From an uncultured Chloroflexia bacterium (GTDB lineage Bacteria > Chloroflexota > Dehalococcoidia > Dehalococcoidales > RBG-16-60-22), in the NCBI GenBank assembly GCA_963796365.1, contig CAWCLJ010000004.1, forward strand, positions 1,162,519-1,226,518: DNA of 64,000 bases, written 5' to 3'. The translations under genes and the position numbers were made by a program. Position 1 is the stretch's first letter, and every line of letters begins with the position of its first letter. This document shows, piece by piece, positions 4,089-29,270 of the stretch. The notes beneath the pieces are model-generated. The model saw nothing but the letters and a program-made list of their open reading frames with translations, was not told the origin of the DNA and did not search any database.

Positions 4089-4170
4089 TTCACTAAATTG
4101 ACGCCGGAGAGAGGGCAGGGGGAAAATATTTTTCAATCGTGGGGCAGCTTCAATTTGTGACAAAATACTA

Positions 4171-4200
4171 TTGACATGATTAGAACACCAGTGCTAATAT
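4171..4200 (+). promoter_or_regulatory. near-consensus promoter with extended -10
   Basis: TTGACA (4171-4176), an 18-bp spacer, then TGcTAATAT (4192-4200). It reads into the tandem repeat array. Confidence 0.6.
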
Positions 4201-4267
4201 AGGCTGTCAAGAGAAACGAAGATGGATAGGTGTGAACGTGAGACAACTATGAGAAATTCGATTCCAA

Positions 4268-4480
4268 CATTATGTTATTTCAGGCTTGACCCAGGCGTGA
4301 TTCGTTTTTCAGGGGTATTATGGAAAGCTAATCTCGCATCAGGCGTGAATCGTTTTTTAAGGGTATTATGTTAAATCAGGCTCGGTCCAGGCATAAATCG
4401 TTTTTTTGACATATTATGGTAAGCCTAGATACGATTCAGGCTCAAGGGCCTTTTTCAGGGTAGTTATGGTAAGTGATAGT
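4268..4480 (+). repeat. 48-bp tandem repeat, about 4.3 units
   Basis: Unit starts at 4268, 4316, 4364, 4412 and 4461. Conserved cores are TATTATGG, CAGGC and CGTTTTTT; the rest is degenerate. Confidence 0.85.
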
Positions 4481-4741
4481 GGATAGTGAATAGTGAATAG
4501 GGTTGAGGGTTAAGGGTTGAGGGGTGAGAAAAACTTCAAACTCTAAATCCTAAAACTCTAAACAAGCACGAAATACGAAGCTCGAAGCACGAAAGCCCCA
4601 CCACAAACCATTCCGTCCCCCGTATCGCAGTACGGGTTCAACCTGGTTCCACCGAGGTCACCACGAGGTGAACGGTTCACCGTGAACGGGGCAGGCTTGC
4701 AACGGTATGGTTACGGGTGGGTGATAACCCATCTTACTACA

Positions 4742-4870
4742 TTATTTCAGGACAGCGCGGACAAGGCGGATAACGCACTCTTCATCCAAAGAGGGCAGGC
4801 CCAAGTGAGCGCCGGCCAGGCCGATGGGCGAGACTCTTTCTCCGGTGCTACCGAGCGTGCGGTAAGTCAT
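4742..4870 (-). pseudogene. aldo/keto reductase, N-terminal 42-codon fragment
   Basis: Translates to 'MTYRTLGSTGERVSPIGLAGAHLGLPSLDEECVIRLVRAVLK*', a typical AKR N-terminus. The reading frame then ends in repeat modules. Confidence 0.6.
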
Positions 4871-4992
4871 GGAATTTTCAGGATATTTAAACCGGAGGGT
4901 TTTAAGATTAGGGGAGAATACTTATAAAGGTTAGACTGAACGAGAAAGGAAGGTAGGTATTTGCGGTAAATAATTTTAGTGGATTATGTATC

Positions 4993-6672
4993 TTAAGGAA
5001 TTTTATTTTCATATACGTAATCGTATAAATTCCTAGCTTCTAGGTTGTTATTTTCAGCAAGTATTTGTGCTAAATATGAAGTCGATAAGGTAAGATTAGC
5101 ATTGTCTTTTGCAAACTGACGTATTTTTGCAAGTAATTGTTTTCCTTCAGATAAAGTATGCCTTTTTGAGGCATCATTCCATATTAGATCAAATTTTGGC
5201 TTTATTTCTTCATAAACGGTATAAAATTCTTTACCTTTTGCAATAGGCGAAAATTTTATAGTTGCTTGTACATATTTTATTAGAGTTGGTTCATGTAACT
5301 CGTTATAAGTTGAATTTAAGAAATCTAAAAAGAGATTACGCAATTGTTGTGGAAATATCGATAATAATAAATCTTGTTGAAGAAAAATATTTTCAAATTC
5401 ATGTCCAGGTGTGAACGTTGTCCTAATCCCATTTCTTAAAAGCTCAATTGAAATTTTCTCAAGATAATCACCTGGATAAAAATCTTTGTCTAATAATAAA
5501 GAAAAAGAAGGTTCTTTTGCAAAGAACATTTTGTAAGCATTTTTATACGAAGAACAATCTTGCCACTTATTCAAGCCGAAAATTGGAATGTTATGAGTAC
5601 GAACAGATGAACCAAAGGCCTTAGCAATTTGTGTCAATAATGCATAGTCTTGAACATTCTCAGTAAAAATTATTCTCTCTACATCCTCAAATTGCGAGGC
5701 CACAAGATTAAATGAACTACCTATATCTTGGCGAATTTCCTCTAGACGATCTCTATTTTGAGTTGGTGTTGGTTTTGAAATATTGATTCCGCGTTTTATA
5801 TGTAAAATATGACTGAAATCAACCTCATTCATTAATTCAGAGGAATGTGTTGCAATTATCATTGAACCGGTAAAATATTCACGGAAGGTCTGTATCATAA
5901 TATGTTGCATTTCAGGATGTAAGAATATTTCAGGTTCATCTAATACTATTGTAGAACAATAAGAAAGTCTGACGAGATGGGTCATGAGTTGTAGCCAAAT
6001 TTGGAAACCTTGACCAGCGTAAGAAATTTCTCCCGTAATATTTCTTTCGGTAAAGGGACAATAAAGAATGTTTGTAGAACGATCATGTCCGACATCTCCG
6101 AGTATAGTTCTATTCCATGTTTCATAAATAATATTTTTTACTAATTCTCGTTGCTCGGGAGTTAGAAGTTGATATATATGATTTCTAATATGTAAAGGAG
6201 CTAATGAAGTATTTAAATGACTAAGAATATGGTCCCTACTTAAAAGTGCTTCCTCTTCGCGGATTTGACCTAATGGAGGCATAAACCCTAAAAGTGATTT
6301 AAGTGATGAAGGAGAATAAGCAGGTAAATTACATATAACCTGTTCCTTCTCACTATCAATATGAACTATTATTTCACGGCCGTTATCAAGTTCTGCCTGA
6401 ATTTCTGCAATACCATCTTGAAAACCATGGATTAGTCTGCGTAAATTTAAATCCTTAAGGTCACTAGCGTACAGTTGATGTTCAACCTCTCGGGTAGTTC
6501 CTTTTGCAAATCTAAAAGAATTTTCAAGCAATCTAAGCGCACGAAGAAGAGAACTCTTTCCAACATTATTCTTCCCTGTTATTAGAACGAATGCTTGATT
6601 GTCAGTAGGAAATTCAAATTCGTGACTAGAGTATGGACCAAAATTTTGCAAAATTATCCGTTGGATTTTCAT
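4993..6672 (-). CDS. ABC-type ATPase fused to TOPRIM/DUF4435-like domain (OLD-family / PARIS-like nuclease candidate)
   Basis: Start 'MKIQRIILQNFGPY' at 6672. The listed ORF extends upstream only because it reads into the IS. Walker A 'GKNNVGKS', 'YAGQGFQ', Walker B 'IVLDEPEIFLHP', 'ATHS'. C-terminal 'IIFTENVQD' and 'LLLDKDF'. Strongly AT-rich. Confidence 0.7.
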   Translation of the reverse strand: MKIQRIILQNFGPYSSHEFEFPTDNQAFVLITGKNNVGKSSLLRALRLLENSFRFAKGTTREVEHQLYASDLKDLNLRRLIHGFQDGIAEIQAELDNGREIIVHIDSEKEQVICNLPAYSPSSLKSLLGFMPPLGQIREEEALLSRDHILSHLNTSLAPLHIRNHIYQLLTPEQRELVKNIIYETWNRTILGDVGHDRSTNILYCPFTERNITGEISYAGQGFQIWLQLMTHLVRLSYCSTIVLDEPEIFLHPEMQHIMIQTFREYFTGSMIIATHSSELMNEVDFSHILHIKRGINISKPTPTQNRDRLEEIRQDIGSSFNLVASQFEDVERIIFTENVQDYALLTQIAKAFGSSVRTHNIPIFGLNKWQDCSSYKNAYKMFFAKEPSFSLLLDKDFYPGDYLEKISIELLRNGIRTTFTPGHEFENIFLQQDLLLSIFPQQLRNLFLDFLNSTYNELHEPTLIKYVQATIKFSPIAKGKEFYTVYEEIKPKFDLIWNDASKRHTLSEGKQLLAKIRQFAKDNANLTLSTSYLAQILAENNNLEARNLYDYVYENKIP

Positions 6673-6820
6673 AATATTTGACAAAGTATAAAACAAATAA
6701 ATAGGACAGTCAAGAAATAAAAATCGTTCATAACGCTTAAGATATACAAAAATCTCGTTTATTCTAAAAGCTAAATCATTATTTGTCAGTCCCCTCCTAG
6801 CCATATACGTAACCGAACCA

Positions 6821-8183
6821 GAGGTTCCGTCAATAGGTGTGTAAATGTCAGGCGACGGCAAGTACCTCCTCCTGTTTGATTTCTCCCGGGCCCAGGCTTT
6901 CGATACCCAGGTAAACTTCCTGTAATATCTCCGGTGCATCCAGCTTTCTGAATCGCTGCTCGGCAATCAAAAGCATCTTCCAGGTTACTGCCGTAGCGTT
7001 GGCCACTTTCTTAAAGCGCTTGGCCGCATCGGTCCGCAGTCTCAGAGCGGCGAAGGGCGATTCGACCGGGTTGGTGGTTCGAAGATGCTTCCAGTGCTCC
7101 TTCGGGAACCGATAAAAGGTCACCATCCGCTCCCAGTCATGCTCTAGTGCCGCGGCGGCCCGGTCATAGCCTTCTTTCCGGCACCAGCGGACGAAGTGGT
7201 CGCGCTTAACTTCGGCTTCCTCGCGGTCTGCCGAGTACACAATTCCCTGTAATTCATTCTTAGCATTGCCTTGTGCCTTCTTCGGTAACTTATCCAGCAC
7301 GTTTCGCACTTTGTGATTCCAGCAACGCTGCTCCAGCGCATCGGGAAAGACAGCATTCAAGGCTCCCCAGATGCCCAGGTGACCATCGCCCACTACCAGC
7401 CGGGGACAGTTCAGACCGCGTCCTTTGAGGGAACGCAACAGGTCGGACCAGCTTTCGGTAGATTCGCGATACCCGGGCTCCACCGCCAGGATCACCTTCC
7501 GCCCATCGCTTAATGCGCCGATCACCACCAGCAGCGCCGCCTTAGTTTTCTCCAGACCAGCCTTGATGTATACTCCGTCAACCCACATGTAGACCAGTCT
7601 CAGACCTTTGAGACTGCGCCGCCGCCACTCTTCCCATTCAGCTTGCCAGCTCTCCTTGAGTCGGGCTATCGTACTGGCGGAGATGGGCGCCTCTTCTCCC
7701 AACAGACCCCGTAGCGCCAGGTCAAAATCACCTTGCGCCAGACCGTGCAGGTAAAGCTGTGGTAAAAGCTGATTTACCTCTTTCGTCCTTCTGGCGAACA
7801 ACGGCAATACCCGGCTCTTGAAACGCTCCGCCAGACCTCTGACCCTGGGCCGGCGCACGGTAATGGTCCCACAGCCCAGCGTTAGCCTTCGCCGCTTGCC
7901 GTAGCCATTCCGGTACGCCCGCGAAGCATCCAGTCCCTCGCGCCGCTCGGACTTGCCGCGCCCCAACAGCTCTGTTATTTCATCTTCCAGTAGAGCCTGG
8001 ATGAATTCCCTCACCTTCACCCGCACCATCTCTTCGAGATAATCCCAGACTTTACTTGACGACTCCGGCTTCCCTGTGGTTTGCTTTCCCATGGTGGTGG
8101 GTACCCTCCTTCTGTTTGTTTCATCACTAACAGAAAGGGTACTCGCTGCCGCTAACTATTTCCACACTTTTTGATGATACCTC
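6821..8183 (-). mobile_element. IS256-family insertion sequence, apparently intact
   Basis: Imperfect terminal inverted repeats (GAGGTTCCGTCAATAGGTGTGTAAATG... versus the reverse complement GAGGTATCATCAAAAAGTGTGGAAATA...). 8-bp direct target duplication CCGAACCA at 6813-6820 and 8184-8191. Confidence 0.9.
6848..8092 (-). CDS. IS256-family (mutator-type) transposase
   Basis: 414-aa ORF with 'VYMWVDGVY', 'VVGDGHLG' and 'RCWNHKVRNVL' blocks characteristic of Transposase_mut. Confidence 0.9.
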   Translation of the reverse strand: MGKQTTGKPESSSKVWDYLEEMVRVKVREFIQALLEDEITELLGRGKSERREGLDASRAYRNGYGKRRRLTLGCGTITVRRPRVRGLAERFKSRVLPLFARRTKEVNQLLPQLYLHGLAQGDFDLALRGLLGEEAPISASTIARLKESWQAEWEEWRRRSLKGLRLVYMWVDGVYIKAGLEKTKAALLVVIGALSDGRKVILAVEPGYRESTESWSDLLRSLKGRGLNCPRLVVGDGHLGIWGALNAVFPDALEQRCWNHKVRNVLDKLPKKAQGNAKNELQGIVYSADREEAEVKRDHFVRWCRKEGYDRAAAALEHDWERMVTFYRFPKEHWKHLRTTNPVESPFAALRLRTDAAKRFKKVANATAVTWKMLLIAEQRFRKLDAPEILQEVYLGIESLGPGEIKQEEVLAVA

Positions 8184-8291
8184 CCGAACCAGGAAACCAT
8201 ACGCGTGTACTATAAGTGAGGTCACTTATTCTCGTGGAATATATACAGGTGGAATAATCGTAACGGCAATACGATTAAGGTGGTAACCGCT

Positions 8292-8522
8292 ATGTCTATC
8301 ACAGAAAAGTCAGAAAAAAAGATGCTCTCCCGGCTAAAGGGAGACAGCCGCTCCGGCCTGAAAATAGAAGTGGGGCCGGACAAACGCATTCGCCTGGTCC
8401 TGGATAAGAGTGGAGGCTCCCGGCAAAACTATATCAGCCCGGCCTATCTTGCCCAGGGAGAACTGGATTCTCTCCCCAATGAGACTTTTTTCGACGGGCA
8501 GGATGATGACTTCGATTTCTAA
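8292..8522 (+). CDS. small hypothetical protein with acidic C-terminus
   Basis: ATG at 8292 preceded by AAGGTGG. 76 aa ending in 'DGQDDDFDF'. Host-like composition. No family recognised. Confidence 0.4.
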   Translation: MSITEKSEKKMLSRLKGDSRSGLKIEVGPDKRIRLVLDKSGGSRQNYISPAYLAQGELDSLPNETFFDGQDDDFDF

Positions 8523-15069: not shown

Positions 15070-15255
15070 CTAATGTTTTTCCGCGGCACCGGGCATTTTC
15101 TCGAACTGGTCTTTGCGCACGCCGCAGAGCGGACAAACCCAGTCATCCGGTATATCTTCAAAAGCCGTCCCCGGCGCGATACCGCCCTCCGGGTCGCCTT
15201 TATCCGGGTCGTAAATCCAGCCGCAAACGATACAAACCCATTTATCCATCGTCAT
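15070..15255 (-). CDS. rubredoxin
   Basis: '[12 protein letters not shown]' and 'DWVCPLCGV' (two CxxC pairs). Start MTMDKW at 15255. Confidence 0.9.
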
Positions 15256-15262
15256 GTTCCTT

Positions 15263-15441
15263 TCAGGCAAGGTCTTTCTTCATCCGGCCGTATCGTTCTT
15301 TGGTAATTTCACCGCGGGCGTAGCGTTCTTTAGCGATATCGAAGGCCGGCCGGCCGTTATAGGCGAAGCATGATGGCGTTTACCGGAAGACGCGATAATC
15401 CAGACAATCGGAATTACCAGCAGTATCGGCAATAAAAACAT
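15263..15441 (-). pseudogene. small membrane SHOCT-domain protein, frameshifted
   Basis: GGAGG-ATG at 15441 gives 'MFLLPILLVIPIVWIIASSGKRHH..'. The SHOCT motif '[26 protein letters not shown]' continues in another frame after the GGCCGGCCGGCC run (~15344-15356). Confidence 0.65.
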
Positions 15442-15789: not shown

Positions 15790-15957
15790 AGCATTCTTAA
15801 ATATTTAGGCCAAAAGTGCGTGTATTTGATAAGAGAAGGCAGCAGACATAGCATTTTCGCAAAAGGGAAATTGAGGACGGAAATTCCAAGACACAATGAA
15901 ATAATCGATGAATTAGCGAAAAAGATTTGCCGGGACCTTGAAATTCCGTGTAAATAA
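15790..15957 (+). pseudogene. hicA: HicA-like toxin, N-terminally disrupted
   Basis: The frame ending at TAA 15955-15957 reads '..ILKYLGQKCVYLIREGSRHSIFAKGKLRTEIPRHNEIIDELAKKICRDLEIP'. There is no start codon, and the upstream part of the frame is the family-A repeat. Confidence 0.55.
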
Positions 15958-15971
15958 TAAGGAGCGTGTAA

Positions 15972-16163
15972 ATGGAATACAGGGCAGTAATAAAAAAAAG
16001 TGGAGACTGGTGGATAGGTTGGCTTGTTGATTTACCGGGTGTTAATGCTCAAGAAAAAAGCCGGGCAAAGTTAATAGAATCACTCAAAATTGGGGCTGAA
16101 GATATGTTGAGTTTACCGGTAGAACCTAAAGATGAGGAAGAACTGGTCAAGATAGAAGTTTAA
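15972..16163 (+). CDS. hicB: HicB-like antitoxin (UPF0150 type, no DNA-binding domain)
   Basis: 'MEYRAVIKKSGDWWIGWLVDLPGVNAQEKSRAKLIESLKIGAEDML'. It starts 14 nt after the hicA remnant, with GGAG upstream. Confidence 0.7.
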   Translation: MEYRAVIKKSGDWWIGWLVDLPGVNAQEKSRAKLIESLKIGAEDMLSLPVEPKDEEELVKIEV

Positions 16164-16377: not shown

Positions 16378-16605
16378 TTAGTCAGCCGGTTGAATTTCAA
16401 TAATTCTATTATGTTCGACGGTCAGGAAGTAATGCCGAGATTTACAGTTAAGGTCGAACGTTTCCGTTTTGAACATAAACCTTCTTTCTCTTGATGGATC
16501 TTCAGCAGTCACAAAGGTGAGTTCATACATTTTTTTAACTGCACCTATCACGGTGCTAGATATCAATAATCCGGTGACAATAGCCATAGTTATCTCCCTC
16601 CCCAC
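16378..16605 (-). CDS. small hypothetical protein with N-terminal TM segment
   Basis: 75-aa ORF in an AT-rich patch, overlapping the upstream HTH gene by 16 nt. No family recognised. Confidence 0.35.
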   Translation of the reverse strand: MGREITMAIVTGLLISSTVIGAVKKMYELTFVTAEDPSRERRFMFKTETFDLNCKSRHYFLTVEHNRIIEIQPAD

Positions 16606-16811
16606 TTATTATTTAGTTTCTTTGCCCCTGTATCATATTCGAAGGATAAAAAATCGGTTAGCTGAGATTGGCTTATACGCCATATCTTTTTCCCAAGGTG
16701 GTAACCTTGTAGTCTTCCAGAGTTTAACCAACGACGTACCGTAACTATGTTGACCTGCAATAGAGAAGAAATCTGTTCAGGAGTAAAAAATTTTTCCGGC
16801 TGACTAATCAT
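16590..16811 (-). CDS. excisionase/MerR-type helix-turn-helix DNA-binding protein
   Basis: 'FTPEQISSLLQVNIVTVRRWLNSGRLQGYHLGKKIWRISQSQLTDFL' matches the HTH_17/excisionase pattern. AT-rich. Confidence 0.65.
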   Translation of the reverse strand: MISQPEKFFTPEQISSLLQVNIVTVRRWLNSGRLQGYHLGKKIWRISQSQLTDFLSFEYDTGAKKLNNKWGGR

Positions 16812-16879: not shown

Positions 16880-17206
16880 CTAAATGGCGTGTACCAGGAA
16901 ACCAAAGCCGACCGCCAGTATCAAATAAGCTGCACTGCCGCTCAGGCTGGTCAGGACAAAAGCGCTTAAAGCTTTGCCGCGGGCCACGCCCAGCCGTTTG
17001 CTGTGTATCAGCATAAAAAAGCCGATGGAAATGCCCACGCCCACGAGGAACTGGATAATGAGCGCCGGAGCAACCCAGCCGGAGACGAAGAACAGCCAGA
17101 ACAAAGCGCCGGGGAAAACGGCAAAGACAAAGTTGATGCCGGGATAAATCAGCGATTCCCACCACCCCATTTTCCGGTTATTGGCTTTACCCAGGAAAAC
17201 CGGCAT
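16880..17206 (-). CDS. small integral membrane protein
   Basis: 108 aa with three or four hydrophobic segments, directly downstream of the exported protein gene. Confidence 0.5.
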   Translation of the reverse strand: MPVFLGKANNRKMGWWESLIYPGINFVFAVFPGALFWLFFVSGWVAPALIIQFLVGVGISIGFFMLIHSKRLGVARGKALSAFVLTSLSGSAAYLILAVGFGFLVHAI

Positions 17207-17215
17207 TAAATAGTG

Positions 17216-18319
17216 TCAGGCAAACATCCAAATCAATATCCCGATAATTAAAGCAAAGAGGACCGAGTAGCCGAAACCGTGCTCCTCCATGTAAGCCAGG
17301 AAGCGGCTGAAACCGGAACTCGTTTTGACCGTGATGACAACATCGCTGGTGGCGTTGCTCTGCGTATAGGTCGCGCGCCAGACATGCCCGTAGCTGCCCC
17401 TCGCCTCATCCACCGCGTAAGCGGGCGCTGGAACATCGACAAACGGCTGGATGTTGGAACCGGAAATAAAATCGTAGCCGGAATGTTCGGCGCCAAGTTT
17501 GGGATACCGGACGCTGAAGTCCATCTCTGAAGGAGCGTTAATATAGACGCGCGTCAGCTTTATCGGCTTCGCCCAGGCATCACCGGTGCCGAGCGGATAG
17601 GTGATGGTCTTGCCGCCGTCCGCCGTAATCGCTTCGGTAGTCCAGGCAAGGTGCAAGCCGGGCTCGGTGGCGGCCGGCTGCCCGGGGGCGGTGCTTTCCT
17701 GCGTTAAAGTGGAGGCCGGCCTGGTATTCAGCTTCACAATAGCTATTTGCTGCCCTTTCAGGCGGGAAAGCGTTCCGATGACGTTATCCGGCAGGCCGTT
17801 AGTCTGTATCAGGTCGTTGAGGTCGGTATTATCATCAATGCCGTAGATGCTTATTTGGGAGCTGGCCGTCGTTAAAGTTTGTTCCGGCTTTTGCGAGGCG
17901 GCCCCGCAGCCGGTAAGCAGCACCGGCGCCCAGGCGGGGATGAGTATCGCGCCGTTATTCAAAAGCGCCCCGGCAAATAATGCCTGGAGAGCCCCTTGTC
18001 TATTATTCGCTCCGTCCCGGAGGTCGTTATCTATCCACTTAGTGACGTGTTCATCGAAGGTGAAAAGGTCCTGTTCAACCGCTTGAAAACCGGCGGTATT
18101 CTTGCCGATGGGCACGAAAAAGGTAATTTGATGGGAGACGGGGGTGGCATCCAGGATGGAAATAAAGAGGTCTATTTGCGCCTTGTCCTGCCCGAGGATG
18201 GTTACGACGCCTATCTGGTGCCCCTCTTCCAGGTCCGCCCAGAGGTCATGGGGAACAATAGGCCCGCCGTCGGCAAAAGCGGGGGAGGGAACATTGATAG
18301 CTAAAAGGACAACCAACAA
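17216..18319 (-). CDS. exported protein with C-terminal membrane anchor (possibly DUF2330-like)
   Basis: Signal-like N-terminus ending 'SPAFADGG' and a C-terminal TM 'VLFALIIGILIWMFA'. The hydrophobic leader continues upstream of 18319 in frame, so the true start may be further 5'. Confidence 0.6.
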   Translation of the reverse strand: MLVVLLAINVPSPAFADGGPIVPHDLWADLEEGHQIGVVTILGQDKAQIDLFISILDATPVSHQITFFVPIGKNTAGFQAVEQDLFTFDEHVTKWIDNDLRDGANNRQGALQALFAGALLNNGAILIPAWAPVLLTGCGAASQKPEQTLTTASSQISIYGIDDNTDLNDLIQTNGLPDNVIGTLSRLKGQQIAIVKLNTRPASTLTQESTAPGQPAATEPGLHLAWTTEAITADGGKTITYPLGTGDAWAKPIKLTRVYINAPSEMDFSVRYPKLGAEHSGYDFISGSNIQPFVDVPAPAYAVDEARGSYGHVWRATYTQSNATSDVVITVKTSSGFSRFLAYMEEHGFGYSVLFALIIGILIWMFA

Positions 18320-18693
18320 AAGGAAAACAACTGCAGGTAAAATTTTTCCGGCGGAAATGTTACCTCCCGGGGATTTATTGATACCAGTTTAGGGAATGGG
18401 AGGTATTTAGTCAATATTTCAACTATTTAGAGCGTAACAAAAAACAAAAATCCCCCGGAACTCTTGAAAGGAAACGGGGGATAAATCATTACTCGCTTAT
18501 TTCTACATTTGTCTCGTATACCAGTCAGGTCTACCGGTTAAATAATTTAAATTCTTTCCGCCCATTTTTTATCTATGAATTGTGTTTTTAAGATTTGCCC
18601 CCGTATCGCAGTACGGGGCATGCTTTTGACTTCTGATTTATTCTTATCAACCCCCTGAATGAGGGTGAGTGTGAGTAGTTGGTAGTTAGGGAT

Positions 18694-18747
18694 GACCGGG
18701 GGACGCCCCCGGAGCCCCCGCCAGAGAGAACTCTCTCCGGGCTCTCT
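18694..18747 (-). repeat. family-A element, copy A2
   Basis: The reverse complement reads GAGAGCCCGGAGAGAGTTCTCTCTGGCGGGGGCTCCGGGGGCGTCCCCCGGTC. Confidence 0.75.
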
Positions 18748-18956
18748 TTATTTCGTATATTTCTTGCTCATGCCTATTAAATTACCAAATCTCTTTACCC
18801 ACCGCAGGCCCCGTATCAACCTCTTTATGCAGATTATCTTTAGTAATTTTGGCTAATAGTTGATTAAGGGTAACAGGTTTTCTATTAACCAGTTTTTTAT
18901 TTTTGAGTTGTGGTTTTGAGATGTGAGATTTGATTTTTGATTTCTCCTTCCCACCC

Positions 18957-19409
18957 CTATTTCGTGTATTTCTGGCTCATGCCGGCCGTAAAGTGGAACA
19001 TCGGCTTATCTATTTTCCGGATGTTTATTGGGCCGTGTTTGGTGCCGGCCGGGACGAAACAGAGGAAGCTCCGGTCAATAAAGTTCTGCTTGCCGTCAAT
19101 CCAGATTTCAATCAGGCCGTTGAGATTATAACGGTCATCGGGGTCGGTGCCGACCCAGGCGATGACCTCGTCGTAATCATGGACGTGCTCACCGATGGTG
19201 CGGTCTTTCCGCGTGCCGGTCTTATCCGGCCAGTCGTCGGGCAGGAACCAGGCTGTTTCCATGTAGAAAGCGCCCTTCATGACGTTGTTATCGAGTGAGA
19301 TAACGCGCCGCGCCTCATTATCCGTAAACACCGGCGACCACGGCGCAGCTCCCACCACGTCCTGCAGCTCGGTCACAAAATATTTTTTGTCCCATTTAGC
19401 TTTAGCCAT
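18957..19409 (-). CDS. metal-binding cupin paralog 3
   Basis: Cupin motif 1 'GEHVHDYDEVIAWVG' and motif 2 'FVPAGTKHGP'. Its ATG shares one base with the stop codon of paralog 2 (TAATG). Confidence 0.7.
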   Translation of the reverse strand: MAKAKWDKKYFVTELQDVVGAAPWSPVFTDNEARRVISLDNNVMKGAFYMETAWFLPDDWPDKTGTRKDRTIGEHVHDYDEVIAWVGTDPDDRYNLNGLIEIWIDGKQNFIDRSFLCFVPAGTKHGPINIRKIDKPMFHFTAGMSQKYTK

Positions 19410-19891
19410 TATTTTTTCCTCCCCTTTTGCTGCTCATGGATTTGTTTTTGATGCCCGCCGGGGTCGGCTTCGGCGAGGGACCCGGCGCCGATCATGATGG
19501 TAAATTCAAGGTGCGGATGCCAGAATTTTTTCCAGGTCAGCGGCCCGTGCTTAACGCCCTTCGGGACGAAGACACAGGATGTTTTATTGAGAATGAGCAG
19601 CTGCCCGTCCACCATGAACTCGATTTCCCCGCCCAGGTCCTCCTGGTCTTTGGGGTCGGTGCCGAGGTGGATAACGATTTCATCGTAATCATGCGTGTGC
19701 TCGAGGATGTGGGGATTGGGGTCCGGCATGCCCAGCACCCAGCCGGTCTCGATATAGAAGTTGGAGCCGGGCACCAGGGCGTTGCTCAATAACGTCATCG
19801 CATTGGTGCGGCCCTTCACAACCATCGGCGGGACGACTTCATAGCCGGGTTGGCTGACGAAGTATTTTTTGGCATCGAACTTTTTCGGCAT
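19409..19891 (-). CDS. metal-binding cupin paralog 2
   Basis: 'LEHTHDYDEIVIHLG' and 'VFVPKGVKHGP'. 160 aa with a basic C-terminal tail. Confidence 0.7.
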   Translation of the reverse strand: MPKKFDAKKYFVSQPGYEVVPPMVVKGRTNAMTLLSNALVPGSNFYIETGWVLGMPDPNPHILEHTHDYDEIVIHLGTDPKDQEDLGGEIEFMVDGQLLILNKTSCVFVPKGVKHGPLTWKKFWHPHLEFTIMIGAGSLAEADPGGHQKQIHEQQKGRKK

Positions 19892-19911
19892 CTTTACCTC
19901 CTTACGAGATA

Positions 19912-20382
19912 TTACTTCATTATATAGGCGGAATTGTTACCGGACTCGAACATGAAAACGGGTGTATCCAACCGCTTGATAATCAACGGGCAGTGCTTCA
20001 GTCCCTTAGGTATGAAAATATAGCTGCTTTTGGTTATCGGGTAAGGCTCACCGTCCATCCAAAGCTCTATTTCTCCTCCAAGCTCACGCGGGCTATTCCG
20101 GTTAGACCCCACAAACGCGATGATCTCATCGAAGTCATGCTTGTGCTCCGTCTCTATCTGGACGGGTTTGCCGCCGGGAAGCTCCCAGAGCCATTCGCAA
20201 CCCGCGAAAAAAGCCCCTTTCACGAAGGAGTCCTGGATGGCCATCATCATCGTCCGGTCGAGTGTTTTCCCGGCTTTAGCCTGGTCGTCCATCATTTTTA
20301 CGTATTGAGCAGGACGCGGCGGCATCAGGTCTTCCGTGAGGATATTTTTAGCGTATTTTTGAGACTTTTTTTTTACGGGCAT
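19912..20382 (-). CDS. metal-binding cupin paralog 1
   Basis: 'TEHKHDFDEIIAFVG' and 'IFIPKGLKHCP'. It starts 12 nt after the reductase stop, with AGGAGGGG upstream. Confidence 0.7.
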   Translation of the reverse strand: MPVKKKSQKYAKNILTEDLMPPRPAQYVKMMDDQAKAGKTLDRTMMMAIQDSFVKGAFFAGCEWLWELPGGKPVQIETEHKHDFDEIIAFVGSNRNSPRELGGEIELWMDGEPYPITKSSYIFIPKGLKHCPLIIKRLDTPVFMFESGNNSAYIMK

Positions 20383-20394
20383 CGCCGCCCCTCC

Positions 20395-22485
20395 TTATAT
20401 ACCGCGTGCCGCCTGCATGCCGGCGCTGATAGCGTCCGCGATCAAGAGCGGGTCTTTGCAGTCGCCCACGGCATAAACCTCCGGCGCTTTTCCTTTCAGA
20501 CTTTCATACAATGACAAGTCCGGCGCTAAAGGCAAAGCTGTTACGACGGTATCCGCCGGCAGGGCTTTGCGTTCCCCGGCGTCGGTCATAATCATGACCC
20601 CCCGGGGCGTTATTTCGATATCTTTCAAGCCGCTGATGAGCTCGACATTCTTGCGGCGGAACCAGCCGAAGAGGTACGCCTGGATAACGTCCACCATGTT
20701 CTGCCCCAACCGTTCGGCTTTATCGATGATGATGACCTGGCGGCCGCGCAGGGTGAAAAACTCGCCAAGCTCACAGCCCTGAAGCGCGCCCCCGATGATG
20801 ACCACCCGTTTCCCGATAGGGAGATAGAAATTGGTCAGCCACCGCAACATCAGCGGCGGTATAAAACGCAGATAAGACTTAAGCTGTTTGTGCAAGGCGG
20901 CATTGCTGACCACATTAGCGTTCTGAATGCCTTTAATATCCGGGGTGACCTGCTTGCCGCCCACGGCGACGATAACGGCGTCCGGCTTTATTTTGTCGAC
21001 CGTTTCCAGCGTTACTTCTTTCCCGAGCTTAATTTCTACACCCAGGTTTTTCAGTTGCCGCCGGTAATAATTTACCAGTTCCGGCAGGGGTTCCAGTTCC
21101 GTGCCTTTGACCAGCGCGGCAATCCCTAATAATCCGCCTAATTTTGTCTGTTTATCGTACAGGGTAACGTCATGCCCGCGCAGGGCGGCGACCCTGGCGG
21201 CTTCCAGCCCGGCCGGTCCGGCCCCGATGACGAGCACCTTTTTCTTTTTGTCCGCTTGCCCGGCAGTATTATATTCCTTGCCCATAAAAGCATTAACACG
21301 GCAGCGCTGGCTGCCCAGGCAGTTTTCACAGGCCATGCAAGGCACGATATCTTTCATTTGGCCGGCAATAACTTTGTTGGGGTAGTCCGGGTCCGCCTGG
21401 AGACGCCGCGTCATGGCGATGAAGTCGGCCTTGCCTTCGCGTAAAGTTTTTTCTCCCAGCCCGGCATCCAGCTTGGCGACCACCATCACCGGGATTTTGA
21501 CCGCCTCTTTAATCTGCCCGGCCAGGTTGACGTTCCAGGCTTTGCCTTTTTCCTTGATGTTATAGACATCCGGGAACGATTTATCGGGGATGGGCGGTTC
21601 CGGGTAGAAAAGCAGGTCCGGCAGGTAGGCGCCGACGTGGTAGCCGAGCCAGTGGCTGCGGATGTGCAACATATTGACGCCGGCGGCTTCCAGCAGTTTT
21701 GCGGTGGCTTTAGCGTCATCGATGGTAATGCATTTTTCGTTGGGAATACCGGCCATCAAGCCGAATTCCGAAGCGTTGATGCAAACGGAGACCGGGAAAT
21801 CGTTCCCCAGCCGCCGTTTAATTTCTTTAACGATAGAGATAACGAAACGGGCGCGGTTTTCGGCCGAACCGCCGTAGATATCCTGCCGCCGGTTCCAGAA
21901 CGGCGATAGGAAGTTATGCAGTAAATGGCTGCTGGCGGCGTTGATATCCACGCCGTCGAACCCGGCTTTTTGCGCCCGCACCGCCGCACTGACAAACTTT
22001 TCGATGATAACCTCGATTTCCGGTATCGTCAGCGCGTGGGGCACCTGGTTATGGAAGTCATTTTCCGCCTTCAGGCTAACGGGGGAGGCGGCGATAGGGG
22101 GGCCTAGAAAAGCGGGGTCGGGGTCTTCGAAGAGGGGGGCCTGCCAGGGGCCGTCATGGTTCATCTGCATGAAAGTGGGGCAGCCGTAGCTGTGAATCAT
22201 CTTCGGGAGGGCGCTTAAACCCGGCACGAACTTATCGTCATCGATGCGGTAGCGGGCGCGCCACCTGGCGCCGGAAGGGTAGTCTATCGTCGGGGACTCT
22301 ACGATGAGCAGGCCGATGCCGCCCCGCGCCAGCGACTCATAATACGCCATGACTTTGCCGTTCATGGTCGTTTCGCTTTCGTGCCACATCATTACCCCCG
22401 CCCCGGTCTTGACCATGCGGTTGCGCGTTTTGACTGGCCCGATATAGCCCGGCTCGAGGAGTTTTTCGAATTGCTTGTTGGCCAT
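20395..22485 (-). CDS. OYE-family NADH:flavin oxidoreductase with Fe-S and FAD/NAD(P) domains (2,4-dienoyl-CoA / enoate reductase architecture)
   Basis: 696 aa. N-terminal TIM-barrel OYE blocks, a cysteine cluster 'PCMACENCLGSQRC' and a Rossmann 'VLVIGAGPAGLEAA'. Confidence 0.85.
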   Translation of the reverse strand: MANKQFEKLLEPGYIGPVKTRNRMVKTGAGVMMWHESETTMNGKVMAYYESLARGGIGLLIVESPTIDYPSGARWRARYRIDDDKFVPGLSALPKMIHSYGCPTFMQMNHDGPWQAPLFEDPDPAFLGPPIAASPVSLKAENDFHNQVPHALTIPEIEVIIEKFVSAAVRAQKAGFDGVDINAASSHLLHNFLSPFWNRRQDIYGGSAENRARFVISIVKEIKRRLGNDFPVSVCINASEFGLMAGIPNEKCITIDDAKATAKLLEAAGVNMLHIRSHWLGYHVGAYLPDLLFYPEPPIPDKSFPDVYNIKEKGKAWNVNLAGQIKEAVKIPVMVVAKLDAGLGEKTLREGKADFIAMTRRLQADPDYPNKVIAGQMKDIVPCMACENCLGSQRCRVNAFMGKEYNTAGQADKKKKVLVIGAGPAGLEAARVAALRGHDVTLYDKQTKLGGLLGIAALVKGTELEPLPELVNYYRRQLKNLGVEIKLGKEVTLETVDKIKPDAVIVAVGGKQVTPDIKGIQNANVVSNAALHKQLKSYLRFIPPLMLRWLTNFYLPIGKRVVIIGGALQGCELGEFFTLRGRQVIIIDKAERLGQNMVDVIQAYLFGWFRRKNVELISGLKDIEITPRGVMIMTDAGERKALPADTVVTALPLAPDLSLYESLKGKAPEVYAVGDCKDPLLIADAISAGMQAARGI

Positions 22486-22617
22486 AGAGATTCCCCCGTT
22501 GGTAAAACTTGCTGATATTATACAACTTTAACTATTCAAATTCATGTTATAACCGCTGCGTGTAAACATCAAAGACCGATGGTACGAAGAGAATGAATGA
22601 CCGGAATTAGTGAAGGG

Positions 22618-23367
22618 CTAACCCGGGAACAGGGAGTGAAAAATTAGTGCGCCGTAATAATAAGGTTCATGCCAGTAAATAATATTGACCACTTTCGGGA
22701 ACAGCGTCTCAAAGACGGGGCCGATGTATCGCCAGGCAAAAAAGAGGAAGACAAAACCGATAAAACTGAAGGCGCGGCTGGTGACCAACGCCCCGTATTT
22801 ACGGGCGGCATTTTCCGTCAGGAACAGGGAGATGATGCCGCTCCCATCCAGCGGCGGTATGGGTATGATGTTGAAGATAAACAATATCAGGTTCTGGGTA
22901 AACAGCATGCTGAAGAACGTAGCGAGGCCGGTCAAAACACCGCCGGAAACCGGGGCGACGATGGTATAAAAGTTAATTGATTTAGGCCCGGTGAAGAAAC
23001 CGGTAAGCACGCCAGTCTCCAGGACGATGAATGAAACGATGAGCAGCAACAGGTTGGCCGCCGGTCCCGCGGCAGACATTAAAGCGGCTTGGCGCGGGTT
23101 TTTATGTGCCCAGAAAACATCGTACGGCGTGGATGCCCATCCGATAGGCCAATGGATTAAGATGATAGAGATGATGGGTATGACCACCATGCCTATCGGC
23201 GACCGTCTAATATGCGGCCACGGGTTCAATGATACCTGCCCGCCTTCATAAGCCGTAGGATCGCCGCCTTTTAAGGCCGCCCAGGCATGAGCCGCTTCAT
23301 GGAACGTCGCGGAAATAATAAAAATGAAGAACCAGGCAAAACCATAGGCTATTTCCGATTTATTCAT
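22618..23367 (-). CDS. site-2 protease family (peptidase M50) membrane metalloprotease
   Basis: 'FHEAAHAWAA' HExxH within a TM segment, a multi-pass protein, and 'PIPPLDGS'. Confidence 0.8.
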   Translation of the reverse strand: MNKSEIAYGFAWFFIFIISATFHEAAHAWAALKGGDPTAYEGGQVSLNPWPHIRRSPIGMVVIPIISIILIHWPIGWASTPYDVFWAHKNPRQAALMSAAGPAANLLLLIVSFIVLETGVLTGFFTGPKSINFYTIVAPVSGGVLTGLATFFSMLFTQNLILFIFNIIPIPPLDGSGIISLFLTENAARKYGALVTSRAFSFIGFVFLFFAWRYIGPVFETLFPKVVNIIYWHEPYYYGALIFHSLFPG

Positions 23368-23603
23368 AGACCGGCGTTATTATAGGCAATGGTATAAATG
23401 TATGTCAACTAAAAAGGAAAATATCAAGTAACAACTGGTTAAGTAACAAGGAATGATTAAGGGGTAAGTGATCAGGGGTTAGGGGTAAGTTCACCCTCAC
23501 CCCGTATCGAGTACGGGGCAAGCTCTTAATCCTCTCCCGTCAAGGGAGAGGAAACTTGGGGGATTTTATCACTTATTATTCCTCACTTGCTACCTGGCAG
23601 TTG

Positions 23604-23999
23604 CTACTTCCCCCTCAGCATCTTCTTCATCGGCGTCCAGTAGTAGTCTTTCCACCCCTGGGAAACGTCTTCAAACTGGTCTTCCGGGACGCCGGTCTGG
23701 GTAAAAGTCATTTTGGTGCCGCCGTCAGCTTTAGCGAAGGCGAAGGTGACTTCAGAATAGTGCCCCTCCGGCCAGTCATCTGCCCGCCAGGTCTGCACGA
23801 TTTTTTTATCTGGGTCCAGCTCTTTGTTTACGCCGGTAGCATAGCCATCGAAAACATTGAACTTTCCGCCGACTTTCCGGCTGATGGTCGCCTTGCCGCC
23901 GGTGAATTCCGCGTGCTTTTTAGCGTCTATCAAGGCCTCATAGACATCATGCGGGCTAGCTTTGAAAGTTACCGATTGTTTAATTGTTTTAGTCTCCAT
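23604..23999 (-). CDS. SRPBCC / AHSA1 (activator of Hsp90 ATPase homolog 1-like) domain protein
   Basis: 'IKQSVTFKASPHDVYEALIDAKKHAEFTG' and 'VTFAFAKADGGTKMTFTQTGVP' are typical of AHSA1-family proteins. Confidence 0.8.
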   Translation of the reverse strand: METKTIKQSVTFKASPHDVYEALIDAKKHAEFTGGKATISRKVGGKFNVFDGYATGVNKELDPDKKIVQTWRADDWPEGHYSEVTFAFAKADGGTKMTFTQTGVPEDQFEDVSQGWKDYYWTPMKKMLRGK

Positions 24000-24095
24000 T
24001 TTTCCCTCCCCATAATTTAAAAATACCAGTTACTTGACTGATATTCAACCCCTTGAATGAGGGTGAGTGCGAGTGCGAGTAGTTAATAGTTTGGG

Positions 24096-24446
24096 TTATC
24101 GGGGGTGTCCGGACTCCTTATTCTCCATCCCGTCCAAACATTCTTTTTTATCCAGCCCCGCCTGCCATATGGCGCAGCATTCCGGTTTTACCGTGTGAAT
24201 AGCGCAGGCGCTTAAGCCCCCCTCCCACTTCAGGAAGGCGCAGGCCCCGTTGACATGGCGTATCAGGCGCCACTCGGAGAATTTCCAGCGCGGGTCGTCG
24301 TAAAGCTCGTCCCACTCTTTGAGCGTAATTCCCAGGTACTTAACGATACGTGGGATATCTTCAGGCGTCACGAAGGCCTGGTGCCTCGTGCAGCAGGTGC
24401 CGCAGCGACGGCACGCGATAGGTTGTTTAGATTCCGCAGTGGCCAT
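24096..24446 (-). CDS. YkgJ-family CxxCxxCC cysteine-cluster protein
   Basis: 'CRRCGTCCTRH' motif. Start MATAESK at 24446. The upstream part of the listed ORF is a repeat module. Confidence 0.75.
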   Translation of the reverse strand: MATAESKQPIACRRCGTCCTRHQAFVTPEDIPRIVKYLGITLKEWDELYDDPRWKFSEWRLIRHVNGACAFLKWEGGLSACAIHTVKPECCAIWQAGLDKKECLDGMENKESGHPR

Positions 24447-24568
24447 TTTACTCACATCCCCTTTAATCCCCCTTCGAAGGGGGAAAGGAAAGGGCAAACC
24501 AGCGGTTCTTTGTTTTAGCAAATTATCCTCGCCCTTCTAAGGGAGAGTTAGAGAGGGATTTTTCAATT

Positions 24569-25120
24569 TTACTTGATAATCGCGCTTATCTGCTTGAACT
24601 TATCGCCTTTGGCAACTTTCAGCAGCTCAAAGAGCGCCATCTCGGTTGAGGTTATGCCTACGCCGCCGGTACCCAGTTTAAAAAGCGCTGCCAGGCGGTT
24701 TTCCGGTTCGCGTGAAGCTATGCAGTCCCCGACCACTTCCACCTGGTAAAACGACCGCGCCAGCGCGGCGGCGGTCTGGTAAACGCAGATATGGGCTTCG
24801 ATGCCGGCCATCAGCACCTGCTTGCGCTTTACGGCATCCAGCGCCGCGGTAAAAGCCGGTTCATCGCAACAGCTAAAGCAGGTCTTTTCCACCGGCTTTA
24901 TATCGGGGAGGAGTTTTTTAATCTCCGGGATGGTCGGCCCGAGGCCGTTGGGGTACTGCTCGGTGATAATGACCGGAATTTCCAACGTTATAGCGCCCTT
25001 AATCAGCTTCAGGACATTATTCAACAGCTTTTCTTTGTCGTGCATGGCGGGGAAAAGTCTTTCCTGGAAATCGATAAGCACCAGCACCGTCTTTTCAACT
25101 GTCAAAGCATCCGGAAGCAT
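24569..25120 (-). CDS. isochorismatase-family cysteine hydrolase
   Basis: 'VLVLIDFQ' and 'LMAGIEAHICV' (catalytic Cys context). Confidence 0.8.
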   Translation of the reverse strand: MLPDALTVEKTVLVLIDFQERLFPAMHDKEKLLNNVLKLIKGAITLEIPVIITEQYPNGLGPTIPEIKKLLPDIKPVEKTCFSCCDEPAFTAALDAVKRKQVLMAGIEAHICVYQTAAALARSFYQVEVVGDCIASREPENRLAALFKLGTGGVGITSTEMALFELLKVAKGDKFKQISAIIK

Positions 25121-25476: not shown

Positions 25477-26244
25477 CTACTTCAATACCAGCACATTGGC
25501 AAAAACCTGCCACGCGAGCAGCGACTTGGCGGTGAGACTAAGAATAATATAGGCCTTTTCGCCGTAGAGATAATCGCGCCAGCGCCCAACCTGTTTGTAT
25601 TGCAGCACCATATTAATAGCAAAGCAGTTAAAGAAAACAAACAGGGAAACGATGATGCCGTAAACGAACCCGGGCGGCGATACGCTGATTCCGGGTGCCG
25701 CCACATAAACGGCGATGGCAATCCACGGAATGATGCCGGCAAAGCTCCCCATCCAGAACGGCAGCCAGCCCGCTTTGCCCGGTTTTTCATATTTTTCCTG
25801 CAGCGCGCCGAAAAGAATCATGCAGGCGTTGACGCCGAAGATGGCCATCAACGCGGCTACATCGCTGATGCCGGTAATCTGGGCTATCAGCACAATCATT
25901 ATCGAAGAGCTGAAGAAATACTCTATCCAGCGCCCGTAATTTTTGTTCTCCAGCAGGTTGCGCCTGTACCAGGGAAAAACCCAGGGAGACGCGATGGTCA
26001 GCAGTGAAAGCGCGGAGATGGCCATGAAGGCGAAAACACCCCAGCCGGTCTGGATGTCCCAGATTTGATGGAGCGTGACGGCGCTGCCGGGCGGGCCCTG
26101 CATGAAGGTAGCGGATACCGGCAAAGAGAAATTATTCGTGAATACCGCCATGGCGACGGCCTGGGCGGCGAGAACCAGCCCGACCACGATATTCCAGACT
26201 CTTAGATTATTGAGTTTGCGTTCCATAGACTGGTCAACAGCCAT
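25477..26244 (-). CDS. heliorhodopsin
   Basis: 255 aa, 7-TM. Family blocks 'RWIEYFFSSSIMIVLIAQ', 'AIFGVNACMILFGALQEKY', 'PGFVYGIIVSLFVFFN' and 'ILSLTAKSLLAWQ' (retinal Lys), plus the counterion-position Glu in 'WIEY'. Confidence 0.85.
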   Translation of the reverse strand: MAVDQSMERKLNNLRVWNIVVGLVLAAQAVAMAVFTNNFSLPVSATFMQGPPGSAVTLHQIWDIQTGWGVFAFMAISALSLLTIASPWVFPWYRRNLLENKNYGRWIEYFFSSSIMIVLIAQITGISDVAALMAIFGVNACMILFGALQEKYEKPGKAGWLPFWMGSFAGIIPWIAIAVYVAAPGISVSPPGFVYGIIVSLFVFFNCFAINMVLQYKQVGRWRDYLYGEKAYIILSLTAKSLLAWQVFANVLVLK

Positions 26245-26360: not shown

Positions 26361-26828
26361 CTATTTTACCTGGGTCGTAAGGAACATCTGCAGGCCCATC
26401 TGTGTCATCTGGTCTTGCGCCTCTTCAATATCGTTGACATGGCCGTCTTCGTCATTCAATATGTGCTCAAGGATTTCACGGGTAGCGAAGTCCTTGGCAT
26501 CCCCGCACAGTTTGATAGCCGCATTATACCGCTTCACGGCATCCAGCTCGGCTTCGTGGTCGCTGGCAAACATCTTGGGAACGTCGGCGCCGATATTCAT
26601 TTTCTCGAGTTCGCTTACTACCGGGATACCGTCAAGAAATAATATCCGCCCGATGAGTGTTTCCGAGTGTTTCATCTCGGTCACGGCGCGCTTCTGGATG
26701 GTGTCATGAAGTTTGGTATAACCCCAGTTATCGCACATTTCGGCATGGACCATGTACTGGCTGACGACGGTCAGCTCGCGGGCCAACAAAGAATTAAGTG
26801 CCTCCAGGACTCCAGTATCCCCTTTCAT
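26361..26828 (-). CDS. bfr: bacterioferritin
   Basis: 'LNSLLARELTVVSQYMVHAEM', 'AVTEMKHSETL' (heme Met context) and 'ILNDEDGHVNDIEE' (ferroxidase ligands). Confidence 0.9.
   Translation of the reverse strand: MKGDTGVLEALNSLLARELTVVSQYMVHAEMCDNWGYTKLHDTIQKRAVTEMKHSETLIGRILFLDGIPVVSELEKMNIGADVPKMFASDHEAELDAVKRYNAAIKLCGDAKDFATREILEHILNDEDGHVNDIEEAQDQMTQMGLQMFLTTQVK

Positions 26829-26996: not shown

Positions 26997-29270
<2,274 letters not shown>

Follow-up and report, generated by a model that had tools for sequence, protein, structure and literature searches.

What three paralogous cupins do directly behind an enoate-type flavin reductase was the question raised by a stretch of 64,000 nucleotides from contig CAWCLJ010000004.1 (assembly GCA_963796365.1, positions 1,162,519–1,226,518); the whole of this 64-kb stretch is referred to as the window. 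On its minus strand, the open reading frame (ORF) list contains a reductase gene (20395–22485, 696 aa), followed by cupin 1 (class D, 19912–20382, 156 aa), cupin 2 (class B, 19409–19891, 160 aa) and cupin 3 (class A, 18957–19409, 150 aa). Reductase and cupin 1 are separated by 12 nt, the reductase stop codon lying inside an AAGGAGG; the 20 nt between cupins 1 and 2 also contain AAGGAGG, and the stop of cupin 2 and the start of cupin 3 share one base (TAATG). That the four genes form a minus-strand operon of an uncultured Dehalococcoidales bacterium is well supported. An earlier reading, made from the letters and ORFs without database searches (the sequence-only reading), had described the 12-nt gap, three metal-cupin paralogs of ~150–160 aa and the TAATG overlap, all of which were confirmed from the ORFs and motifs. 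In short, the cupins were recognised, with good support, as an unnamed and unannotated branch of the cupin superfamily, each with a complete 3-His-1-Glu metal site, and their linkage to this reductase was found to be conserved; a role in the same pathway is tentatively proposed.

The reductase and the cupin paralogs

Pfam domains of the reductase were Oxidored_FMN (residues 8–375, E 3e-49), Pyr_redox_2 (415–677, E 2e-27) and Pyr_redox (560–620), accompanied by the motifs CMACENC...C at 383–395 (C383, C386, C389, C395) and GAGPAG at 421. This order of an Oxidored_FMN barrel, a four-cysteine linker and flavin adenine dinucleotide (FAD) plus NAD(P) Rossmann domains is that of the old yellow enzyme (OYE)/[4Fe-4S]/FAD three-domain class, to which the 2,4-dienoyl-CoA and 2-naphthoyl-CoA reductases (DCR and NCR), enoate reductase and trimethylamine dehydrogenase (TMADH) belong and to which the protein is assigned on domain and motif evidence. 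The closest solved relative was NCR (6qkg; E 5e-71, residues 6–690 aligned, ~30% identity), with E. coli DCR (1ps9, E 1.5e-45) in second place. Domains, cysteine and GAGPAG motifs and the 6qkg match together bear out the DCR/enoate/NCR-type layout that had been read from the sequence. All NCBIfam equivalog cut-offs were missed by a wide margin, with 361 bits against 793 for the mycofactocin OYE model, 342 against 750 for the bilirubin reductase BilR and 305 (full length) against 825 for BaiCD.

In NCR, Y197 is described as the 'invariant proton-donating tyrosine' of OYEs, W459 obstructs the NADPH site, E341 and R245 lie near the flavin mononucleotide (FMN), and F375, F379 and F573 form a phenylalanine cluster (PMC6502838). 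Six of these residues were mapped onto the window reductase by a phmmer alignment, from which we infer their functional reading: the proton donor Y197 corresponds to His187, W459 to Leu467, E341 to Ala357, R245 to Cys235 and F375 to Leu390, and F379 falls in a deletion. The DCR counterpart of the proton-donating tyrosine is Y166. Among 94 homologs with at least ~57% identity, the signature N182-x2-S185-S186-H187-L-x-H190-N191-F192 was invariant or nearly so; His187 was present in 94 of 94 and the four Fe-S cysteines in 93–94. At the aligned positions, this N..SSHL.HNF signature is unlike NCR and DCR. Judged by these alignments and model scores, the reductase represents an uncharacterised clade with its own active-site signature and is not an ortholog of NCR, DCR, BaiCD or BilR.

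The three cupins are 34–41% identical to each other and carry the motif pairs EHKHDFDE/PKGLKHCP, EHTHDYDE/PKGVKHGP and EHVHDYDE/PAGTKHGP, with the common pattern HxHD[YF]DE plus PxGxKH[GC]P. Their scores against Pfam Cupin_2 (PF07883) were 20.7, 17.5 and 15.9 bits, below the gathering threshold of 27.2, and NCBIfam gave no match; by these scores they are a divergent branch outside the curated PF07883 model. In 5.8 billion proteins, a profile search found 945 relatives. Those with a name were all 'hypothetical' except for one labelled 'quercetin dioxygenase-like cupin family protein', and where an organism was given, as in a few cases, it was Dehalococcoidales or Chloroflexi. With clusters counted at 50% identity, a full HMMER scan of 1.84 billion representatives yielded 1,250 clusters at E ≤ 1e-3, or 686 with the cut-off set to E ≤ 1e-10, and many contained two domains. 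Members came nearly all from uncultured Dehalococcoidales and other bacteria of anoxic habitats, the source names being peat, fen, cold seeps, sulfate-methane transition zone and anaerobic reactor. A search for a cultured host returned named hits that were all metagenome-assembled genomes (MAGs) or single-amplified genomes (SAGs). Given the sub-threshold Pfam scores, the NCBIfam result and the 'hypothetical' relatives, the cupins do not match a characterised family with a stand-alone function; such a match would have counted against the sequence-only reading.

For class assignment, 231 cupin domains from 80 genome loci (the best 80 of at least 403 genome hits) were clustered. Cupin 3 fell into class A, the most numerous class in the loci examined, cupin 2 into class B and cupin 1 into class D; each window paralog has its own orthologs, which indicates that the triplication is ancient. 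In the cupin alignment, H75, H77, E81 and H125 (cupin 3 numbering) were invariant, and the His/His/Glu/His tetrad was retained by all 122 class A and all 19 class D domains and by 51 of the 52 in class B. Class C, which was observed only in longer arrays, has lost the tetrad.

The AlphaFold2 (AF2) model of cupin 3 had a mean predicted local distance difference test (pLDDT) score of 72, with 83–93 in the barrel (10-residue blocks). In Foldseek searches, its top matches were the epimerases StnK3 and MarH (E ~5e-5; template modelling (TM) score 0.47 query-normalised and 0.56–0.62 target-normalised), followed by TM1459, KdgF and single quercetinase domains; all top hits were cupins of the generic monocupin kind. 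MarH and StnK3 were likewise the closest solved sequences to the window cupins (E 0.0025 and above). The double-stranded β-helix (jelly-roll) of the cupin superfamily was found in the cupin 3 model and in a fused relative, and the cupin fold read from the motifs was thus confirmed by modelling and structure searches.

Linkage of cupins and reductase

Linkage was assessed from both sides, using cupin-seeded genome loci (forward test) and reductase-seeded metagenome loci with enough flank (reverse test). Of the 20 loci at or above 69% identity to cupin 3, 15 contained an orthologous reductase, and 4 of the 5 reductase-less loci end <1 kb upstream of the cupins, so that 15 of 16 testable loci keep the reductase. 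In the reverse direction, cupins lay nearby in 8 of 9 loci of the closest reductases (at least ~67% identity), the single exception having a partial cupin match at a contig edge; the fraction was 7/15 in the next bin and 11/32 for reductases ~57–62% identical. Co-occurrence across genomes, on which the sequence-only reading had staked the association, is therefore conserved. Six or more gene orders keep the linkage (OYE>C>C>C, C<OYE>C>C, C>C<OYE>C, C>CC>C>OYE, C>C>OYE and OYE>C>CC>C, with C for cupin), with reductases only 57–65% identical across them, and this persistence through several arrangements argues for function rather than mere inheritance.

Within the arrays, what does not vary is a B gene with an A gene behind it; over 31 loci, the median B–A junction is −1 nt. 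Orthologs of A and B are conserved at least as well as the reductase in most close loci; an ortholog of D (at least 57% identity) is present in 9 of 26 close loci, where it is sometimes divergent from the reductase. The conserved core is hence the overlapping B–A pair and not the triplet, D being optional. Of the cupin triplet paired with a reductase, as the sequence-only reading had it, the linkage stands, whereas the triplet as a unit does not, and the B–A pair also occurs without the reductase.

B–A pairs without this reductase were found between paired short-chain dehydrogenase/reductase (SDR) genes and a twin-arginine translocation (TAT)-type molybdopterin oxidoreductase, with glutamate-mutase-like E, S and MutL nearby, and also beside CoA-transferases. 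Other cupin neighbours were family III CoA-transferases, enoyl-CoA hydratases, PrpD-like proteins, aldehyde:ferredoxin oxidoreductases, FAD_binding_2 flavoproteins, URO-D-like proteins and B12 mutase parts; in the closest reductase loci, genes for a glycoside hydrolase family 3 (GH3) glycosidase and for an alpha/beta hydrolase often lie upstream, with an SDR gene downstream. Dihydrophloroglucinol cyclohydrolase, considered as the identity of the cupins on account of the SDR neighbours, was ruled out, as it belongs to the isatin-hydrolase/cyclase family and its paper makes no mention of cupins.

Fusions are also common. B–B bicupins (~305 aa) are abundant, all 120 matches listed for P0011 being of two-domain length (278–331 aa), A–A fusions are present, and some loci have the reductase, then a B–B fusion with both halves B-type, then A. 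The AF2 model of a B–B fusion (pLDDT 91, predicted TM score (pTM) 0.89) was a classical bicupin, for which the best target-normalised TM scores (0.72–0.75) were obtained with the isomerases BacB and AerE. The natural fusions being homotypic (B–B or A–A), they point to pairing of like domains and give no proof of B–A or D–B contact. In many Dehalococcoidales, four or five cupin genes in tandem (B, A, A, C, A) were observed next to rplJ-rplA-rplK-nusG-tuf, after a ComM-like gene (L045, L049 at 6373–8462, L058, L064, L068, L075, L076 and L078).

A further neighbour in the window is a small ligand-binding protein of the SRPBCC/AHSA1 family, 131 aa long (23604–23999, minus strand; PF08327, E 3e-28). 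Its gene lies on the same strand directly upstream of an orthologous reductase in six other independent loci (L002/L008, L009, L011, L039, L084, L088), at a spacing of ~1.1–1.3 kb in the window and L084; in the window, this gap contains an M50-peptidase gene. The SRPBCC/AHSA1 protein is probably an accessory partner.

Proposed function and its alternatives

In the reading that we prefer, albeit tentatively, the cupins would be cytoplasmic, O2-independent proton-transfer metalloenzymes and pathway partners of the reductase, not parts of an obligate complex. Their invariant metal sites argue for catalysis. B–A pairs without this reductase, together with more distant reductases that often lack cupins, make pathway partners most likely rather than obligate subunits, and O2-independent Lewis-acid proton transfer is made probable by the anoxia of the habitats, by neighbouring enzymes of oxygen-sensitive types and by the structural analogues that come closest (MarH/StnK3, BacB/AerE). 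A divalent metal would act as Lewis acid on a substrate carbonyl or carboxylate and a proton would be moved, the outcome being keto-enol tautomerisation, isomerisation of a double bond into conjugation, or epimerisation; the cupin epimerases MarH and StnK3 and the isomerases BacB and AerE operate in this manner. The cupins might thereby supply a carbonyl-conjugated C=C bond to the flavin reductase, or process its enol or enolate product. The hydride donor would be FMNH−, supplied from NAD(P)H via FAD and the Fe-S cluster, and the invariant His187 would take the proton-donor role of the OYE tyrosine. A hydrophobic acid or its CoA ester is suggested by the neighbouring CoA-transferases, by the resemblance to DCR, NCR and BaiCD and by the SRPBCC protein; an unsaturated or cyclic acid, hydrophobic and derived from plants or humic matter, or the CoA thioester of such an acid, is the probable substrate.

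Several observations weigh against this reading. No substrate is indicated for the cupins, their structural matches are generic, and the 3-His-1-Glu site is equally typical of dioxygenases. The lowest Foldseek E-values of the B–B model belonged to quercetinases, which are O2-dependent, to MncA and to oxalate decarboxylase. The fusions are homotypic and give no proof of a D/B/A heteromer, and the reading does not account for the need for two to five paralogs. The 64-kb window has no CoA-transferase, SDR, GH3, aldehyde:ferredoxin oxidoreductase, mutase or other partner gene elsewhere, bar a weak alpha/beta-hydrolase match, and its KatG-, bacterioferritin- and rubredoxin-like and heliorhodopsin genes imply that the organism may meet oxygen and light.

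Three of these points, namely the metal site, the quercetin dioxygenases at the lowest E-values of the fused relative and the suggested exposure to light and oxygen, also speak for non-heme-metal dioxygenases that depend on O2 (quercetinase, gentisate or Dke1 type), which would cleave an aromatic or enolic substrate under micro-oxic conditions and leave the unsaturated product to the reductase. The family, however, is almost confined to MAGs of anoxic habitats, and its neighbours include oxygen-sensitive enzymes (aldehyde:ferredoxin oxidoreductase, B12 mutase, TAT-exported molybdopterin oxidoreductase, Fe-S flavoenzymes). The top monocupin and the top length-normalised bicupin matches are, moreover, non-oxidative epimerases and isomerases, and we consider dioxygenase activity rather unlikely. 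Cleavage chemistry was weighed as well: as lyases or decarboxylases, the cupins could make the reductase substrate by C–C, C–O or C–S cleavage, for instance by β-elimination to an enoate. Cupin lyases and decarboxylases are known, DMSP (dimethylsulfoniopropionate) lyases release acrylate, DddQ and oxalate decarboxylase were among the structural matches, and the alpha/beta hydrolase and GH3 glycosidase beside many close loci suggest stepwise trimming of a conjugated substrate. Yet these matches are no better than those to any other cupin, the window has neither the GH3 nor the hydrolase neighbour, and no DMSP-lyase or oxalate-decarboxylase residue pattern was seen, no test having been aimed at one; on balance this chemistry is improbable.

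The very tight gene spacing with the stop-start overlap of cupins 2 and 3, and the class C paralog of related arrays that has lost its metal ligands as would fit a structural subunit, could alternatively mean that the cupins are non-catalytic or regulatory subunits of the reductase (substrate binding, gating or scaffold) in an obligate hetero-oligomer. All three window paralogs, though, keep the invariant metal site, B–A pairs often occur where this reductase is missing, roughly half or more of the clade's more distant reductases lack a nearby cupin, and the solved relatives NCR and DCR were deposited without such a partner chain, which leaves this arrangement quite unlikely. Least credence was given to the idea that the adjacency is functionally meaningless, cupins and reductase being merely inherited neighbours in one lineage. 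Most examples do come from one order, Dehalococcoidales, so that shared ancestry contributes to the synteny counts; but the linkage was kept through at least six arrangements, with cupins downstream, upstream, divergent or fused and reductases as far apart as stated above, and the genes are translationally coupled or closely spaced, which makes an accidental association very hard to credit.

A bolder extension of the proton-transfer reading, put forward as distinctly speculative, is that D, B and A, together with the metal-less class C cupins, might be subunits of an O2-independent hetero-oligomeric metalloenzyme of a new kind that tautomerises or isomerises phenolic or other poorly activated unsaturated substrates to a conjugated keto form, which the NAD(P)H-linked, His-donor OYE-type reductase could go on to reduce. 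If true, Dehalococcoidales of anoxic soils and sediments would have an ATP-independent way to attack aromatic or cyclic compounds that stem from plants or humic matter.

Neither the reductase class nor the cupin fold is new; the literature searched contains no description of the cupin family, its multi-paralog arrays, its linkage to the reductase clade or the exchange of Tyr for His in the active site. Searches for cupins paired with enoate reductases, or for cupins in Dehalococcoidia or Dehalococcoides, returned nothing relevant, and, as the sequence-only reading had supposed, no characterised pathway pairing this reductase class with a cupin triplet was found in that literature. The operon is a sound enzyme-discovery lead and not a known pathway. 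Peat, sediments and the subsurface are habitats in which Dehalococcoidales abound, and little is known of the carbon sources that the non-dehalogenating members use. Here, a large cupin family (~1,250 clusters), often in arrays of 2–5 paralogs and without a named or assayed member in the databases and literature searched, is wired repeatedly to reductases, dehydrogenases, molybdenum enzymes and CoA-transferases, and a reductase clade with His in place of the catalytic Tyr of OYEs is newly delimited. Once found, the substrates would add a step to anaerobic carbon turnover and could yield new ene-reductase/isomerase biocatalyst pairs.

Surroundings of the operon and known systems

About 30 nt upstream of the reductase start, an extended −10-like element, TGTATAAT (22517–22524, minus strand), was read from the sequence as a consensus match only and is a possible promoter of the operon itself. 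It was not listed by the promoter consensus scan because it has no good −35 element. The M50-peptidase gene (22618–23367) precedes the reductase on the same strand, and just upstream of it a perfect 12/12 sigma-70 consensus (TTGACA, 18 nt, TATAAT) was observed at 23379–23408 (minus strand); given this arrangement, read-through from the promoter-like site into the operon is conceivable and might occur. No Rfam match that could have served as a riboswitch clue to the ligand was obtained within 18000–24600. At the other end, two GC-rich hairpins (18689–18742, minus strand; −34.6 kcal/mol, z −2.0), which lack a U tract and were not flagged by the terminator scan, may terminate the operon.

These hairpins directly follow a second copy of the last 26 nt of cupin 3 (18749–18774, minus strand), which reads GMSKKYTK plus stop. 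It is identical to 18958–18983 at 24 of 26 positions, two matches were obtained in 0 of 100 shuffles, and an independent assembly of the same strain (L001) has the same arrangement. Between the two copies sits a truncated antitoxin gene of the AbrB/MazE/SpoVT family (18782–18898, minus strand), recognised by tblastn, of which the C-terminal 33–38 codons and the stop remain; it has no start, and stop codons lie upstream. The tblastn search of this remnant returned 100 plasmid records with at most 67% identity, all annotated AbrB/MazE/SpoVT. No toxin gene was observed beside it. The repeat noticed in the sequence-only reading is thus real, but its interpretation as a decayed fourth cupin copy was ruled out: only 26 nt are duplicated, the DNA between the copies is the antitoxin remnant, and nothing that resembles cupin coding sequence lies ahead of the distal copy, whichever frame is read. 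As the simplest reading, we infer that foreign DNA (a toxin-antitoxin cassette or small integrated element) was inserted at the 3′ end of the gene, duplicating it, and was then mostly deleted. In other loci, the DNA downstream of cupin 3 showed no conservation past the gene end and gave no pointer to the ancestral copy.

A few kb further downstream, two small ORFs (15820–16163, plus strand; 16590–16811, minus strand) look by eye like a HicA/HicB toxin-antitoxin pair, with a nearby ORF resembling an excisionase- or MerR-type helix-turn-helix protein; this by-eye reading suggests mobile-element debris there. A secreted or membrane-anchored protein without Pfam match is encoded at 16880–18319 (minus strand), and its homologs follow cupin A in L011, L013 and L039. 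The window copy has an in-frame TGA at 17216–17218 where the L013 homolog has Trp (FA*HYLMP vs FAWTLLMP), as might result from a nonsense mutation, from the gene being a pseudogene or from an error in sequencing. On the other side of the operon, a heliorhodopsin gene (25477–26244, minus strand; Pfam E 4e-94) stands in a co-directional run with bacterioferritin-like (26361–26828) and KatG-like (26997–29249) ORFs, and a rubredoxin-like ORF lies further downstream of the operon (15070–15270); apart from the heliorhodopsin, these calls are by-eye readings of translations. Together, these genes hint that light and oxygen reach a lineage that is usually regarded as strictly anaerobic. A low-GC stretch with strong positive GC skew at 4001–6000 (0.383 vs ~0.50 elsewhere) may be foreign DNA.

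Among characterised systems, NCR aligns with the window reductase over the full length, with the same domain order, all four Fe-S cysteines and the FAD GxGxxG, but identity is ~30% and the equivalents of Y197, W459, E341, R245, F375 and F379 are missing. The bai operon (BaiCD/BaiH, BaiE/BaiI, the SDR BaiA and the CoA-transferase BaiF) employs the same reductase class, and the reductase here is likewise accompanied, in related loci, by SDRs, by family III CoA-transferases and by small proteins of NTF2-like or isomerase type. The BaiCD score, however, is far below its cut-off (305 vs 825 bits), the small partners are cupins and not NTF2-fold proteins, and the hosts are environmental Dehalococcoidales; the resemblance extends to pathway logic only.

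For the single-domain cupins, MarH and StnK3 (6j4b, 7eqk, 7f6x) were the best match in sequence (E 0.0025) and in structure (E ~5e-5), and in these epimerases a His-ligated metal serves as Lewis acid for enolisation. They differ in their identity of 16–18%, in the conserved extra N-terminal ~45–70 residues of the window cupins (KKYFV motif) and in context, which is not that of secondary-metabolite biosynthesis: no aminotransferase or C-methyltransferase partners were found among the neighbours. BacB and AerE are metal-dependent, non-oxidative bicupin isomerases, encoded next to a prephenate decarboxylase, that bring a double bond into conjugation ahead of a reduction by NAD(P)H (BacG; bacilysin, aeruginoside). 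They are only ~12% identical, the window cupins are encoded by separate paralogs, their partner reductase is of the Fe-S flavoenzyme type, and no BacA-like prephenate decarboxylase was seen among the conserved neighbour families, the neighbour survey not being exhaustive; the modelled fused relative of cupin 2 superposes on BacB and AerE with TM scores of 0.72–0.75 to the target.

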